Of a DNA stretch of 64,000 bases, positions 5,564 through 22,617 are shown piece by piece. Under the pieces are notes generated by a model. The model saw nothing but the letters and a program-made list of their open reading frames with translations, did not search any database and was not told the origin of the DNA. Origin of the DNA: an uncultured Trueperaceae bacterium (GTDB lineage Bacteria; Deinococcota; Deinococci; Deinococcales; Trueperaceae); NCBI GenBank assembly GCA_963799485.1, contig CAWCXJ010000001.1:160001-224000 (forward strand), written 5' to 3'. Position 1 is the first letter of the stretch. The number at the start of each line of letters is the position of its first letter. The translations under genes were made by a program, and so were the position numbers.

Positions 5564-7036
5564 TTGAGACAGGAGTCGTGCGCCGTGGCAGATTCGCAAC
5601 AACGTTCAGGTATACGAAGTAAAAAGCTTTTAGGCTTGACGGGTCTACTCGTCTTGCTGGTCGCGTGCAGCGAACCGCAAACGCCTGCTCCGAACGAGCC
5701 GGACGGCGGGATAACCGAACCACCCCCGACCCAGACCCGGACGCTGACGACCTGGACGATCGACCCGGAGTTTGCGGTGAACGAGTTGGACGCCGAAACG
5801 CAGGTCTGGTACGAAAGGGTCAAACTCGAGATCGCCGCCGAAAGTCGCCGCCCCTGCCCCGCTGCGGGAACGGCGCTCGCCGACTACCCCAACAATTACG
5901 GGGGTTCGCCGACGCTTTCCGCCTGCTCCGGCGTCAAACATTACATAGGCCGCAGCGTCAACGGTTGGGTTACGGCGCTGCTGAGCGTCTTCCGGCTTAC
6001 CGGCGACCGTGCGCTGCTCGAGGAGGTCGACCGGGTGATGGAGCTGGCCCGCGCGCAACTAGCAGACACCGACGGCGACGGCTGGCGCAACTTCAAATCG
6101 CTTCCTTCGATCACCGGAACCGACTTCAACCTTAAAGAGGACGACCTCTCTCACGCCTTTATCCCCGAAGTGATCTACGCCTTTAGAAAAAATGCGGCAT
6201 ACAGCACCGCCGAGTACGACTACGCCGCCCACGCCGACGCCTGGTTGGCGTACCTCCGCAACGATTTCGAGGCCAAGTGGGCCGGACGCGGCGAGACCCG
6301 GGCTACCGAAGGGCTCCCCGTCCACCGCCTGATGCATCCTTTTATCGATATGGTTCGCTACACCACCTATATGACCAAAGTGCTCCCCGACGACGCCCGC
6401 TACACGCGCTTAAGTCGGCGTTTGGGCGCGACGGCGCTAGCAGAGTTTCGGACCGACACCACCGCTAACGGCGAAGCGTTCGTCTGGTCGCACGAAGTCC
6501 GGGGTTACGCGGGTATCAGCCCCGACGCGTGCCTGACCTTACAGATGGGAACCTATCCGACCGAGACGATGCAGTCGTTTCTAGACCTGGCGCTCGAGGG
6601 CGTACCGGGGTTTGCCGACCCCGTAAAGTTGCAAAAACTCTCGCGTACCTTGTCTGAGTCGATCCTCGAGCCCAACCGCGTCGGCTTTATGTATAAAGAC
6701 GTGGGCGGGCCCCGCAACGGAATCATCAGTCCGGCAGAGCGTAAACAGACCGTGATCGACGGCTGGTGTTTTGAAGACGTCAATTATTCGCCGGGCAACG
6801 AGCCGGGCAACTGGTTTCGTTCCATAGGCGCTTACCGCGTTTTTAACTACGGCTTTTTTGCAGCGTTTGCGCCCAGTGCGGCCACCCCGCTGGCTGAGAC
6901 CGAAATCTACCGGGTCAACCTCGAGGCTTACGGCGACCCTAGAAGCCCTGCAACGCAGTTATCATCAGCCGCTATTCCGGCTGCGATGGTCTTTGCCGAG
7001 CTTTACAACACGGGCGCTTATCCTATCGGACAATAA
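5564..7036 (+). CDS. Uncharacterised lipoprotein, possibly alpha/alpha-barrel enzyme
   Basis: Lipobox LLVAC after hydrophobic stretch, Pro/Thr linker, DTDGDG motif; true start may be slightly downstream. Confidence 0.7.
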   Translation: MRQESCAVADSQQRSGIRSKKLLGLTGLLVLLVACSEPQTPAPNEPDGGITEPPPTQTRTLTTWTIDPEFAVNELDAETQVWYERVKLEIAAESRRPCPAAGTALADYPNNYGGSPTLSACSGVKHYIGRSVNGWVTALLSVFRLTGDRALLEEVDRVMELARAQLADTDGDGWRNFKSLPSITGTDFNLKEDDLSHAFIPEVIYAFRKNAAYSTAEYDYAAHADAWLAYLRNDFEAKWAGRGETRATEGLPVHRLMHPFIDMVRYTTYMTKVLPDDARYTRLSRRLGATALAEFRTDTTANGEAFVWSHEVRGYAGISPDACLTLQMGTYPTETMQSFLDLALEGVPGFADPVKLQKLSRTLSESILEPNRVGFMYKDVGGPRNGIISPAERKQTVIDGWCFEDVNYSPGNEPGNWFRSIGAYRVFNYGFFAAFAPSAATPLAETEIYRVNLEAYGDPRSPATQLSSAAIPAAMVFAELYNTGAYPIGQ

Positions 7037-10497: not shown

Positions 10498-10569
10498 TAC
10501 GCGCGACCGGGGGTGAAAGGCTGATTGGGTAGGGGAGAAAGTAGGGTCACGACCTAGAATTGTACCGGA

Positions 10570-10598
10570 TTGACAAACGCTCTGAAACTAGGTAGACG
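10570..10598 (+). promoter_or_regulatory. Sigma70-type promoter driving a putative ncRNA
   Basis: TTGACA (10570-75), 17 nt, TAGACG (10593-98). Confidence 0.6.
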
Positions 10599-10604
10599 GG
10601 AGTT

Positions 10605-10770
10605 ACCGGAGCGTGAGGAGAGAACGCAGGCAGTAGGGTGCATACCGGGGTCGCCAACCCGGAACCGTGCCCTGCCAATCCTTAAAACGTTCGTGATAGA
10701 CGAGTGCGCGGTGCATCAGCGCCAAGGCCGTCACCTCGAGCCGTAACGGAACTTTCCAGCCTCACCAGAC
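10605..10770 (+). ncRNA. Candidate structured ncRNA, family not recognised
   Basis: Closing stem GTGAGG/CCTCAC enclosing four internal hairpins; downstream of promoter; no credible ORF. Confidence 0.55.
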
Positions 10771-10855
10771 AGCTTTCTCTTGCCCCCATGCGCTACCAAC
10801 GACCAAACAGCCGCCGCAATAAACCCGCGTTCATCTGGGACAGGTACAATAGGCC

Positions 10856-12553
10856 GTGCCTGTTTTCTTCGCTCTGCTCGCCCTGTGCACCGCTTACGGT
10901 GTCGGGTCGCTGCCTCTAGGTGGGCGCTGGGTCGCCTTTGTGAGCGGTCAAAACCCGGCGACCACGAGCGCGCACAACCTGGGCGTTGAAAATCTGCTGC
11001 GGTTTGTCGGCGTACCGGCGGCGCTCGGCTCGTTTTTGCTCGACGCGACCAAGGGGATTTTGGCGCTCGCACTTTTTGCCGGAAACCCGTGGGCGGCGCT
11101 CGGCGTTTACGCCGGACATCTTTACCCGCTCCCCTGGTGGCGAAACGAGCTTCCGCGTGGGCGCGGTAACGGGGTGCTTTTAGGGATTTTGGCGGGGCTT
11201 TGGGTTTACGGCGGGGTTCCCTTTGTCCTGACCCTGGTACCGATTCTGGTCTACGCTGCGCTGCTGGGTTGGCGCAGATACGTCTCTTTAGCGACGACTG
11301 CCGGACTCCTGAGCCTGCCGCTGCTCGCGCCGGGCGCACCTGCCGGATATCTACCTGCTGCGCTCGGGATTGCGCTGCTCGGGGTGTGGCGTCACAAGGT
11401 CAGTCTGGCCCGGATTCTGGACGGCACCGAAGCGCGGCTCGGCGACCCGCCGCCGGTGCGGGGCGTCGACCCGAACGTGGTTTACGCCGCGTTTATGATC
11501 CATCCGCTGACCCTAGACGACCTCTGGCAGTCGCACAGTGCCCGCTGGCTCAGGCCGCTGGCACGGCGCGGCTTGCTTCCAGAACCGCTCGTGCGGCTTT
11601 TGGTCAGGTGGCTGCGTCCGCAGTGGAGCGGCGATATTCGCGGCATTACCCTCTCGGACGGACGCGAGTTGCGGGTCATGTTGATCGGTGGGCCGATGCT
11701 CCCCGATCAGATTCGGCGTTATCCGGACGAGGCCCTGCGGATGGCGACGCAGGGCGCGCGGCTTGCCTACGAACTCGGTGCCGAGGCGTTCGGTTTGGGA
11801 GCGTTTTGGTCTACGGTCGGCAACAAAGGTTTAGACGTTCAAGCTGCCGTTCCTGAGCTGCCTATTACCAACGGCGGCGCGTACACCGCCGGAACGGTGC
11901 GCGCGGCGCTGCCGGGCTTGCTGGCACGCTTTGCGGCTTCGGACAGGTCACCGGGACAAGCAACTGCCGCCGTAGTCGGAGCCAATGGCGTGGTGGCGTT
12001 CGGCATCGCTCGCACGGTCGCGCCTGAGGTTGCGCGGCTTATCTTGATCGGTCGTGACGCCGCGCGGCTTTCCAGAAGTGCCCGCACGCTCCTGCGTAAA
12101 TACCCGCAAACCGATATTCTCGTCTCGACGGATATGGGCTGCGTTGCCGAAGCCGACCTGGTTTTTACGGCGACCTCCGACCCTGAGGCGGTCGTGTTTG
12201 CCGAACACGTCAAACCGGGGGCGTGGATTTTCGACTTGGGTCGTCCCGCCGACGTGGACGAAGGCGTCCGTCAAGTTTCGGGCGTTGTACTGATCCCCGG
12301 TGGCGTGGTCAGGCCACCCGGGGCCGCAGAGAGTTCACTCGACTTGCATTTCGGTGACGGTCTGGTTCCGGCGTGTCTGGCTGAAACGATGATCATGACG
12401 GCGAGCCGCGCGTTTGAACGCAAATCGCTTGGTGAGCGCACGAAAGAGGCGAACATCGCGTTTTACGTTGCGGAAGGTGCGCGGCTCGGGTTTGAAGTCG
12501 TGACCGGCGACCCACAGCAGCCCGCACCGGCTCCTATACTGGAGATTGCGTGA
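10856..12553 (+). CDS. PlsY-like acyltransferase fused to acyl-ACP-reductase-like Rossmann domain
   Basis: N-term YGVGSLPLG, DATKG, GHLYP, RHKVSLARILDGTE; C-term FMIHP, LGAFWS, TNGGAYTA, VVGANG, DLGRP, PACLAE. Confidence 0.85.
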   Translation: MPVFFALLALCTAYGVGSLPLGGRWVAFVSGQNPATTSAHNLGVENLLRFVGVPAALGSFLLDATKGILALALFAGNPWAALGVYAGHLYPLPWWRNELPRGRGNGVLLGILAGLWVYGGVPFVLTLVPILVYAALLGWRRYVSLATTAGLLSLPLLAPGAPAGYLPAALGIALLGVWRHKVSLARILDGTEARLGDPPPVRGVDPNVVYAAFMIHPLTLDDLWQSHSARWLRPLARRGLLPEPLVRLLVRWLRPQWSGDIRGITLSDGRELRVMLIGGPMLPDQIRRYPDEALRMATQGARLAYELGAEAFGLGAFWSTVGNKGLDVQAAVPELPITNGGAYTAGTVRAALPGLLARFAASDRSPGQATAAVVGANGVVAFGIARTVAPEVARLILIGRDAARLSRSARTLLRKYPQTDILVSTDMGCVAEADLVFTATSDPEAVVFAEHVKPGAWIFDLGRPADVDEGVRQVSGVVLIPGGVVRPPGAAESSLDLHFGDGLVPACLAETMIMTASRAFERKSLGERTKEANIAFYVAEGARLGFEVVTGDPQQPAPAPILEIA

Positions 12554-21498: not shown

Positions 21499-22617
21499 TT
21501 AACGGTGCCGTAAATTGCCGAGGGCGGTGACGGTGCCCAGCGACTTGATGAGTTCCTCGAGCGTCGTGCTGCTACCATCGGCAAAACGAACCGTTACGGC
21601 TTCACCCGGAATCCCGTTGCCGTTGGCGTCTGAAAGCTTACCGGAAAAGGTGACGGCGTTGTCTTTATCATCGTTGACGACCACCGAACCGCTCAGGTCG
21701 GGTTCGGTAATGCCGGAAAATTTCAGATTGAACGCGACGCTGTTCGTGTCGCCCGCAAACCCGCTCAAGCTTACAGACACCGCGCCGTCTTCGGGGACGA
21801 AGCTCTCGGTCAAGCAGTCCTGCCGGGTCAGCTCGCCGTTGACGGCGACGTTCCACTCGAGCGCGATTCCTTCATCGACTACCGTGACCTGGCCCTGCGT
21901 CGTTACCGAATCGCCCGCATCCGATTCACTGACCTCATAGCCGACGTTCCCCAGGTTTAAGAGGCTGCCCGTGCCGTTGACTGTAAGTGAGGTGGGCTCG
22001 AGGACGGCTTCCCCGCAACCCGCGTAATAGGTCGCCGCAACGTCCACATCGGCGGCGCTCTGTCCGTTTGCCACCAAACTCAGGTTGAGGCCGGTCGGGA
22101 CTTCGACAGCCTCACCGTAAACGTCGGCGCGGATGGTCGGGCTGAGGGCGTTCCAGTCGAAAGTGGCGGTTGCCGTTGCCGTGTCCGGTGCAGACGTTTC
22201 GGGGTCGGCGTCGTAGGGCCAGGTCAAGCTGAGGTCGTCCGCATCGCTGAGGCGTACCCACGCGTCGCCACCGTCCGAACGCGTATAGCTGTAGTTGCCC
22301 CGCGGCAGGTCGTTTACGGCGAGTGCGCTAAACAGTCGGTTCGCCGAACGGCGCGGCGCGGCGCTCACACCGTAACCGAAAAACGGATTGGTCATCAGAC
22401 TGTTTTGCGGAAACCCCTGCAGGGCGATAACGCCCGCGTCTTTAGCGGCGCGCCCCAGCACCGCCATGAGCTGTTCGGAGAGGTTGCTGGCGGTTGCGGT
22501 TACGTCTTGCTGATTGAGTGGACCGCTGGCGGTAGGAGGCGCAGCGATAGGCGCGGTGCAGGCGCTGAGGAGCACGGCGGTGAAGGCGGCGAGTGCGAGG
22601 CAGCGGGGGTATCTCAT
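21499..22617 (-). CDS. Uncharacterised beta-rich lipoprotein
   Basis: Lipobox LLSAC, AGGAG RBS, DANGNG motif. Confidence 0.75.
   Translation of the reverse strand: MRYPRCLALAAFTAVLLSACTAPIAAPPTASGPLNQQDVTATASNLSEQLMAVLGRAAKDAGVIALQGFPQNSLMTNPFFGYGVSAAPRRSANRLFSALAVNDLPRGNYSYTRSDGGDAWVRLSDADDLSLTWPYDADPETSAPDTATATATFDWNALSPTIRADVYGEAVEVPTGLNLSLVANGQSAADVDVAATYYAGCGEAVLEPTSLTVNGTGSLLNLGNVGYEVSESDAGDSVTTQGQVTVVDEGIALEWNVAVNGELTRQDCLTESFVPEDGAVSVSLSGFAGDTNSVAFNLKFSGITEPDLSGSVVVNDDKDNAVTFSGKLSDANGNGIPGEAVTVRFADGSSTTLEELIKSLGTVTALGNLRHR

Follow-up and report, generated by a model that had tools for sequence, protein, structure and literature searches.

Is a protein whose relatives are called 'glycerol-3-phosphate acyltransferase' such an enzyme when its C-terminal half resembles a fatty-acyl reductase and, if not, what might it do in the membrane? 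This question is raised by one open reading frame (ORF) in a 64,000-nucleotide (nt) stretch of a contig from an uncultured Trueperaceae bacterium, the whole of which is referred to hereafter as the window. Judged from its letters alone, the ORF had been proposed to encode a PlsY-type acyltransferase fused to a domain like the acyl-acyl carrier protein (ACP) reductase AAR, and to be a candidate enzyme of alkylamine or diol lipids (referred to below as the sequence-only reading). The analyses described here lead us to favour tentatively, at a probability of about 40%, a membrane-bound fatty-acyl reductase that would make a long-chain aldehyde, plausibly for the N-glyceroyl-alkylamine phosphoglycolipids of the Deinococcota.

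In Thermus and Meiothermus, these lipids make up the main phospholipids; the principal phosphoglycolipid of Deinococcus is related to them, and they have been put forward as a chemical marker that identifies the lineage unambiguously (PMC3035268). A pathway proposed for them in 2022 names, in the accessible part of the article, no enzyme for the alkylamine part (PMC9636437). Long-chain 1,2-diols occur in Truepera radiovictrix, whose polar lipids are uncompared with those of other orders (PMC3072082). In other systems, fatty amines arise through a thioester reductase followed by a transaminase, as in PigE and TamH (PMC8341465) and in TabE/TabA (bioRxiv 10.1101/2025.08.11.669332). Our literature search found no description of a PlsY-AAR fusion or of enzymes that make the alkylamine chain. 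Fatty acids are reportedly the precursors of the Deinococcus alkylamines, as is said to follow from work by Anderson and Huang in the early 1990s.

The ORF encodes a PlsY-AAR fusion

The ORF and its two domains are located as follows:

10856..12553, plus strand: whole ORF, PlsY-like and AAR-like fusion of 565 amino acids (aa) with a GTG start (Pfam, NCBIfam, AlphaFold2 model)
10856..11455, plus strand: PlsY-fold membrane domain, aa 1-200 (PF02660, 79.7 bits; VIA-align Z 19.9 to 5xj7 with model residues 3-195)
11483..12523, plus strand: AAR/COG5322-fold acyl-thioester reductase-like domain, aa 210-556 (VIA-align Z 36.9 to 6jzy_A; profile matches to 4ppm and 6jzq)

In the Pfam scan, the PlsY family PF02660 matched aa 13-187 with an E-value of 3.4e-22, its score lying well over the cut-off of 24.1 bits, and aa 368-479 were assigned to a Shikimate_DH-type Rossmann region; a class-III aminotransferase domain (PF00202) was not found by Pfam in the ORF. 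In NCBIfam, aa 280-534 matched the reductase part of PigE (NF053554, profile positions 69-321) at an E-value of 3e-25, and neither of the two relevant equivalog models was reached, TIGR00023 (PlsY) scoring 42.5 bits against a cut-off of 137.2 and TIGR04058 (AAR) 25.3 bits (E 8.7e-6) against a cut-off of 449.7. Sequence searches of the PDB matched PlsY (5xj5, E 1.3e-10) and PigE (4ppm, E 1.8e-9), and a profile of the C-terminal family reached PigE at 1.3e-67 and AAR (6jzq) at 1.3e-53 with the catalytic cysteine aligned.

An AlphaFold2 model built on a 70-sequence alignment gave a two-domain chain with a mean predicted local distance difference test (pLDDT) score of 94.5 and a predicted template-modelling (pTM) score of 0.92. 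Foldseek ranked AAR first (6jzu_A, E 2.3e-18, template-modelling score 0.78; 0.78-0.80 over the AAR entries, target-normalised). The sequence-only reading had left it to profile and structure comparison whether the C-terminal half superimposes on AAR, and in VIA-align it does, with a root mean square deviation (rmsd) of 2.6 Å over 325 of 342 residues; the N-terminal half superimposes on PlsY over 180 of 193 residues (rmsd 2.7 Å). The terminal amidation domain (TAD) of carmabin biosynthesis was also matched (Z 32). Profile matches and the predicted structure jointly confirm the ORF as a true PlsY-AAR fusion, with assignments far above chance.

Loss of the G3P contacts and conservation of new charged residues in the PlsY-like half

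PlsY of Aquifex aeolicus (5xj5-5xj9) shares with the N-terminal half the seven-helix fold, His92, the Asp/Lys pair and the Arg and Glu of motif 3; the fusion carries in addition a cytoplasmic domain of 350 aa. According to the accessible part of the report on the Aquifex enzyme, the phosphate of glycerol-3-phosphate (G3P) is clamped by Ser35, Arg45, Lys104 and Asn180, its 2-hydroxyl group is bound by Ser142 and His177, and the contacts to acyl-phosphate come from Thr41, His92 and the Gly-rich loop 102-106; at the majority of these contact positions, a single substitution removes most of the activity (PMC5700162). In the window protein, the equivalents of the six G3P contacts are Ala39, Arg49, Arg103, Ser183, Thr147 and His180, whereas on the acyl-phosphate side Glu45 stands for Thr41, His88 for His92 and Arg101 for Gly102. 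The corresponding motifs are encoded at these positions:

10970..11002, plus strand: remodelled PlsY motif 1, AHNLGVENLLR, aa 39-49 (Ser35 changed to Ala39, Thr41 to Glu45; Arg45 kept as Arg49)
11114..11128, plus strand: GHLYP, aa 87-91 (His88 equals the acyl-phosphate ligand His92 of Aquifex PlsY)
11156..11173, plus strand: remodelled PlsY motif 2, the phosphate-hole loop, RGRGNG, aa 101-106 (Gly102 changed to Arg101, Lys104 to Arg103)
11390..11404, plus strand: PlsY motif 3, RHKVS, aa 179-183 (His177 kept as His180; Asn180 changed to Ser183)

Every motif quoted in the sequence-only reading was located in the ORF, both those that it had described as retained (DxxKG as DATKG at aa 63-67, GHxxP at 87-91 and RHK at 179-181) and those altered or belonging to the C-terminal half (GVEN at 43-46, RGRGNG at 101-106, HKVS at 180-183 and PACLAE at 505-510). 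Its description of the RHK histidine as catalytic needs correction: the equivalent His177 of Aquifex PlsY is given in the accessible part of the structural report as a ligand of the G3P 2-hydroxyl group and not as a catalytic base (PMC5700162).

We followed these positions over 142 orthologues extracted from their loci, of which 80 are of the Trueperaceae type, 27 belong to family f2, 31 to family f5 and 4 to others; f2 is taken to be the Deinococcaceae, since named Deinococcus species carry the fusion, and f5 to be the Thermaceae. No orthologue keeps more than three of the six G3P contacts (none in 6, one in 54, two in 73 and three in 9). Ser35 is retained in 3 of the 142, and the position of His177 is occupied by Phe in 27/27 f2 and by Tyr in 30/31 f5 orthologues. 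The alteration of the substrate-binding motifs, pointed out earlier for the single ORF, is thus systematic. On the acyl-phosphate side, the His92 equivalent is kept (His88, 142/142), Thr41 is Glu throughout (Glu45, 142/142), and the GGKG phosphate hole of PlsY has become RGRG, with Arg101 present in 141 and Arg103 in 132 orthologues (Lys in 9, His in 1); Asp63, Lys66, Arg186 and Glu192 are invariant. Conservation of at least 97% was reached at 19 of the 200 positions of aa 1-200, all of them on PlsY active-site loops, while between families the PlsY-like half is 38-44% identical, compared with 56-65% for the AAR-like half.

This pattern indicates that the PlsY-like pocket is still under selection, in a new form predicted no longer to fit G3P, and suggests that this half still binds something specific. 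Given the phylum-wide loss of the G3P contacts, the low TIGR00023 score and a separate canonical PlsY gene in the same genome (described below), the fusion protein is probably not a G3P acyltransferase.

Catalytic and cofactor residues of the AAR-like half

Three elements of the C-terminal half bear on its chemistry:

11972..12004, plus strand: dinucleotide-binding loop VVGANGVVAFG, aa 373-383 (aligned with AAR VVGATGDIGSA)
12050..12067, plus strand: GRDAAR, aa 399-404 (Arg400 and Arg404 align with AAR Arg189 and Arg193 of the pocket for the NADPH 2'-phosphate or the coenzyme A (CoA) 3'-phosphate)
12374..12376, plus strand: Cys507 codon (aligns with the catalytic residues AAR Cys294 and PigE Cys296; PMC8341465)

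AAR of Synechococcus elongatus (PDB 6jzq/6jzu/6jzy/6jzz) and the C-terminal half share the whole-domain fold, the catalytic Cys, the GxGxxG loop and two pocket arginines at about 21% identity, the fusion differing by its added membrane domain and its non-cyanobacterial host. As described in the accessible part of the AAR report, Cys294 is the acyl-accepting residue, and Arg189, Arg193 and Arg314 form a pocket for the 2'-phosphate of NADPH that is shared with the 3'-phosphate of CoA (PMC7089970). Upon alignment of a profile of window-like fusions to AAR, Cys507 fell on Cys294 and the TATS of the fusion on the VASM loop of AAR, so that the AAR-like nature of this half and its catalytic Cys, both proposed earlier from motifs, are borne out by profile alignment as well as by the structural match. 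Cys507 is present in 142/142 orthologues, Arg400 in 137/142, and position 404 is Arg or Lys in all; Gly375, Gly378, Thr440, Ser441, Glu510, Phe213 and His216 are invariant, and at 89 of 355 positions of this half conservation reaches at least 97%.

By sequence, the C-terminal domain is closest to the N-terminal thioester-reductase domain of PigE/TamH (4ppm; NF053554), with which it shares the Cys. PigE and TamH carry a class-III aminotransferase in the same chain where the fusion has a PlsY fold, and they act in secondary metabolism (prodigiosin, tambjamine), whereas the fusion is a near-universal single-copy gene of its phylum. The TAD of the carmabin non-ribosomal peptide synthetase (NRPS; PDB 9e4s-9e56) shares the AAR-like fold at about 17% identity; it is an NRPS terminal domain specific for NAD and not NADP, according to the accessible part of its description (bioRxiv 10.1101/2024.10.28.620694). 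On the strength of its conserved Cys, its NADPH-type pocket and what is established for AAR, PigE and TamH, the AAR-like half looks active as a reductase, most likely by NADPH-dependent reduction of a long acyl thioester to an aldehyde.

The fusion is near-universal in the Deinococcota and accompanies PlsX and separate PlsY genes

The closest public loci, 87% identical, stem from metagenome-assembled genomes (MAGs) of Truepera sp., and the named relatives are Truepera or Trueperaceae. Across the phylum, the C-terminal domain was matched in 353/364 genomes, a tally that includes the unpublished genome G325 (352/363 without it), and in all six families (f1 118/127, f2 124/125, f3 19/19, f4 22/23, f5 68/68 and f6 1/1); among high-quality genomes the count was 260/263. 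The fusion was present at full length in 41/41 f5 and 41/41 f2 genomes of at least 95% completeness and in 5/5 genomes of four other families, and named Deinococcus species carry it under the annotation 'glycerol-3-phosphate acyltransferase'.

In its own genome, the fusion is the only match to the AAR-like domain at E <= 1e-5, with no second AAR-like copy found. The same genome encodes PlsX (313.6 bits) and, as the sequence-only reading had left to be looked for, a separate canonical PlsY. Two stand-alone members of the PlsY family were located:

G000:C6 (L001:1423-2058), minus strand: own PlsY-family paralogue (PF02660 family)
G000:C7 (L002:1456-2070), minus strand: own PlsY-family paralogue (PF02660 family)

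One of the stand-alone genes has the canonical motifs GSGNIGATNVLR, GGKG and HRENIKRL. This copy has Asn at the His92 position (LGNNF), and the second stand-alone copy is divergent in motif 1 (GSSSMGAMNTAR) and in motif 3. In 5/5 other Deinococcota genomes, three to four PF02660 paralogues were found per genome, and PlsX was present in 61/61 sampled Deinococcota genomes. The PlsY family is thus expanded in the phylum. Since genomes with the fusion also carry PlsX and separate PlsY genes, the gene content indicates that the fusion is not the housekeeping PlsY of the database annotation. A role as a substitute for PlsX in the Deinococcota was considered and set aside as unneeded, PlsX being present in the own genome and in all those sampled.

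One closed, Trueperaceae-like genome (G343) has no intact fusion; a remnant of 70 residues is located on its contig C1 (L189:1504-1716), is 39% identical over 74 columns, contains an in-frame stop codon and has Cys507 replaced by Tyr. The decayed remnant implies that the gene can be lost and is dispensable there, and the G343 lineage amounts to a natural knockout.

A second, stand-alone AAR-like gene occurs in G068, G019, G118 and G264 (loci L284, L285, L286 and L282). In the Deinococcaceae-like genomes it is distant (31-33% identical) and, at L284-L286, has a zinc alcohol dehydrogenase gene on one side and a Pyr_redox_2 flavoprotein gene on the other, an arrangement that looks like a module converting an acyl thioester to an aldehyde and on to an alcohol. 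In the Trueperaceae-like G264, the second copy is about 8 kb from the fusion and adjoins an RNA methyltransferase-like gene.

The Deinococcota protein probably derives from an old PlsY-AAR clade

An exhaustive search over 1.84 billion representatives at E <= 0.001 returned 2249 relatives. A Pfam scan covered 68 representatives of these, in which the AAR-like domain was fused to PlsY in 29, to a PlsC-type acyltransferase in 3 (P0210, P0212 and P0263) and to a class-III aminotransferase in 3, one of them also with AMP-binding; it occurred with START/polyketide-cyclase lipid-binding domains in 9 and with PilZ in 5, 3 of which also have START (START-bearing representatives, with or without PilZ, are P0157, P0166, P0167, P0192, P0206 and P0237). 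P0185 to P0255 are proteins of about 700 aa, with a region of about 300 aa lacking a Pfam match ahead of the AAR-like domain. The AAR-like family thus presents itself as a large, mostly unstudied set of lipid-linked architectures. A comparable combination in one protein, an acyl reductase with a glycerolipid acyltransferase, is found in ElbD of myxobacterial ether lipids; its domains, an SDR-type (short-chain dehydrogenase/reductase) reductase and a PlsC-type acyltransferase, belong to families that differ from those of the fusion, but it would set a precedent for linking these two activities.

The PlsY fusions fall into two kinds. Group A is window-like, with Arg at the Gly102 position. Group B has the same architecture and belongs to the same clade by its AAR-like domain; unlike the window protein, it has a canonical PlsY half (PF02660 118-154 bits) with Ser35, Thr41, Lys104, Ser142, His177, Asn180 and the GGK loop kept, and it also keeps the Cys and Arg400. 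Outside the Deinococcota, group A occurred in Armatimonadota-labelled MAGs and in three clusters that bear the label Bacillota or Firmicutes; with a Bacillota-labelled fusion as the query, the 120 best matches included no named cultured Bacillota. Among 79 metagenome fusions, Glu45 was present in 56, another residue stood there in 16 and 7 were truncated. Seven of the 16 combine every canonical PlsY contact with Arg101, and 15 of the 16 (loci L190-L209) have Thr for Arg400, the equivalent of AAR Arg189, which may reflect a different cofactor preference.

In a tree of the AAR-like domain (FastTree, 110 sequences, 330 columns, midpoint-rooted, a single inference without outgroup), 14/16 group-B fusions were united with all group-A fusions at a support of 0.999, and the Deinococcota proteins were nested inside group A. 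By this nesting, the Deinococcota protein would be a derived branch of an old PlsY-AAR fusion, the ancestor of which probably had a working PlsY half.

Gene neighbourhood and search for a partner transaminase

The region ahead of the ORF holds one further feature:

10845..10850, plus strand: TACAAT, a -10-like hexamer 5 nt ahead of the GTG (read from the sequence)

No Shine-Dalgarno sequence is visible ahead of the GTG start, and with TACAAT only 5 nt away the mRNA may be leaderless; a scan for consensus promoters called none on the plus strand. The 358-nt intergenic region on the dnaB side (10498-10855) had no Rfam match.

Neighbours of the fusion in the window encode esterases, YjeF, FtsH, DnaB, PrmA, RsmE, an RNA methyltransferase and an ABC peptide transporter. 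Two sizeable ORFs near the fusion lack a Pfam family at E <= 1e-5 (5564-7036, plus strand, 490 aa; 21499-22617, minus strand, 372 aa). We compared the neighbourhood over 63 Deinococcota loci (43 of the Trueperaceae type, 10 of f5, 8 of f2 and one each of f3 and f4). The loci of all families have in common the fusion alone, apart from spurious antisense frames over it; prmA and rsmE lie downstream of the fusion in the Trueperaceae only, and in f5 and f4 alone its flanking genes are a PNP_UDP_1 gene and one for a small exporter. In 19 metagenome loci from outside the Deinococcota, the recurring neighbours were upp, a deaminase gene, prmC and glyA. Gene context was consequently rejected as a clue to the pathway, the neighbours being housekeeping genes and differing between families.

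The own genome carries seven class-III aminotransferases, all away from the fusion. No partner transaminase was identified by co-loss with the fusion in G343, which itself keeps seven class-III aminotransferases; three of the own seven lack a close G343 orthologue, and these are similar to γ-aminobutyrate (GABA) transaminases and present in G307. Own-genome searches with NF053554, TIGR04058, PF07993 and PF05893 were uninformative, since generic aminotransferase or Rossmann matches turn up nearly everywhere.

A membrane-bound fatty-acyl reductase as the favoured model

In the model that we favour, the protein would be a membrane-integral two-domain enzyme and not a G3P acyltransferase. Its cytoplasmic AAR-fold domain would load a long fatty acyl chain onto Cys507 from acyl-ACP or acyl-CoA, or possibly from acyl-phosphate, and NADPH would then reduce the thioester to a fatty aldehyde, as in AAR and in the reductase domains of PigE and TamH. 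The PlsY-fold domain would anchor the reductase beside the bilayer and, through its rebuilt site (Glu45, Asp63, Lys66, His88, Arg101, Arg103, Arg186 and Glu192), might receive or present a lipid at the membrane surface, a further catalytic step there being possible. In the Deinococcota, the aldehyde would feed a transaminase and become the long-chain alkylamine of the N-glyceroyl-alkylamine phosphoglycolipids. In this model, the substrate, the aldehyde product, the passage from one domain to the other and the final lipid are all inferred. The phylum-wide presence of the fusion fits the distribution of the lipids. Alkylamines are a likelier destination than long-chain 1,2-diols, since the reported diol chain lengths are not simply derived from reduction of the main fatty acids. 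Of the earlier proposal of an alkylamine/diol lipid enzyme, the fusion, the altered motifs and the occurrence throughout the phylum stand, and the link to either lipid is putative.

Several observations weigh against this model. It would be uncommon for two fused domains to act on either side of a transaminase step that is left to a separate protein. In the compared loci, the fusion was linked neither to a transaminase or glycosyltransferase gene nor to any other gene of lipid metabolism, and the neighbours (ftsH, dnaB, prmA and rsmE) are housekeeping genes unconserved between families. Two residues of AAR are unconserved in the orthologues, Tyr247, the position of which (463) is Arg or Val, and Arg314, the position of which (528) varies among Gln, Gly, Ser, Arg and Glu. 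The clade includes fusions with a canonical PlsY half, so its ancestral job was probably tied to real PlsY activity and not to amine lipids. An exclusive link is further weighed against by the occurrence of the family in Armatimonadota and a few Bacillota-labelled MAGs, for which we know of no report of alkylamine lipids. N-glyceroyl alkylamine lipids are reported from several Bacillota (Bale et al. 2025, as cited in PMC13274423, where one table row names Moorella thermoacetica). Finally, the AAR-fold TAD binds NAD beside the same, invariant Cys, yet its chemistry is unsolved in the accessible part of its report (bioRxiv 10.1101/2024.10.28.620694), and an AAR fold alone is for this reason no guarantee of reduction.

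Alternative explanations

The alternative that survives best, although we consider it unlikely, is an acyl relay, in which an acyl group would pass from acyl-ACP or acyl-CoA to Cys507, phosphate would cleave the thioester to acyl-phosphate, and the PlsY-like site would acylate an acceptor other than G3P; this resembles PlsX chemistry and the phosphorolysis step of glyceraldehyde-3-phosphate dehydrogenase (GAPDH). The many clade members with a canonical PlsY half speak for it, since a built-in supply of acyl-phosphate would be sensible there, and the His92 equivalent and the phosphate-hole loop are retained in the window protein. The Deinococcota, however, already possess PlsX as well as separate PlsY genes, we can name no acceptor, and the invariant Glu in place of the phosphate-binding Thr41 would repel phosphate unless Arg101 and Arg103 compensate; moreover, we know of no AAR-fold enzyme that performs phosphorolysis. 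On the cofactor side, Arg400 and Arg404 could serve CoA, which shares the AAR pocket with NADPH according to the accessible part of the AAR report (PMC7089970).

It is quite unlikely, to a higher degree than the relay, that the PlsY-like domain presents acyl-phosphate made by PlsX to Cys507 for NADPH-dependent reduction to the aldehyde. The logic would be that of aspartate-semialdehyde dehydrogenase, ArgC and ProA; this reading departs from the favoured model in its substrate and agrees with it in its product. Such an acyl-phosphate reductase would explain why a reductase became joined to a PlsY fold at all, why the acyl-phosphate side of the pocket (His88, loop 101-106, Asp63 and Lys66) is kept while its G3P side is lost, and it would find its substrate throughout a phylum in which PlsX is universal in the genomes sampled; set against this are the change of Thr41, a contact of the acyl-phosphate phosphate, to Glu, and the use of thioester donors by AAR and PigE.

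About as doubtful is the view that the PlsY-like half is a mere anchor of a generic membrane reductase, whose aldehyde or alcohol would serve wax esters, diols or fatty-acid turnover and not alkylamines. The faster evolution of this half, the decay of its G3P contacts, the absence of a pathway context from the compared loci and the loss of the gene in the closed genome G343 would all be expected on this view, but the conserved positions lie on active-site loops and include a new charged Glu45 and Arg101 in practically every orthologue, which an anchor would not lead one to expect.

We regard as improbable an extension of the favoured model in which one protein performs two non-adjacent steps of N-glyceroyl-alkylamine synthesis. 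The AAR-like domain would make the aldehyde, a separate transaminase would convert it to the alkylamine, and the PlsY-like domain would then N-glyceroylate the membrane amine from 1,3-bisphosphoglycerate or glyceroyl phosphate, Glu45 deprotonating the ammonium and Arg101 and Arg103 holding the donor phosphates. Such a reaction would yield N-(phospho)glyceroyl alkylamine, a near isostere of the lysophosphatidic acid that PlsY normally produces; the G3P-type clamp expected to hold the 3-phosphoglyceroyl group is, however, unconserved.

Least likely of all, and highly improbable in view of the missing G3P contacts and of a canonical PlsY gene elsewhere in the genome, is that the annotation is right and the protein a working acyl-phosphate:G3P acyltransferase with an accessory or regulatory C-terminal domain, for although PF02660 exceeds its Pfam cut-off, NCBI and JGI call the relatives 'glycerol-3-phosphate acyltransferase' and the window protein keeps the equivalents of His177, Arg45 and His92, the PlsY equivalog score is far under its cut-off, no orthologue has more than half of the G3P contacts, and Ser35, Thr41, Lys104 and Asn180 are changed, where Aquifex single mutants lose most activity in the accessible part of that report (PMC5700162).

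Implications for Deinococcota lipids and PlsY-type enzymes

Taken at the strength given above, the fusion gene is a near-universal candidate for the first step towards the alkylamine chain of the N-glyceroyl-alkylamine phosphoglycolipids, in a phylum whose members Thermus thermophilus and Deinococcus radiodurans are widely used in genetic work. The annotation 'glycerol-3-phosphate acyltransferase', which the fusion protein bears across the whole phylum, is probably wrong for it. Its PlsY-like half suggests that a PlsY fold can accommodate remodelling around a charged site of a new kind, and the PlsY-AAR fusions, as they group in our tree, would form one old clade that reaches from carriers of a canonical PlsY half to the Deinococcota and that may be relevant to the way in which PlsY-type enzymes generally receive their acyl chains.

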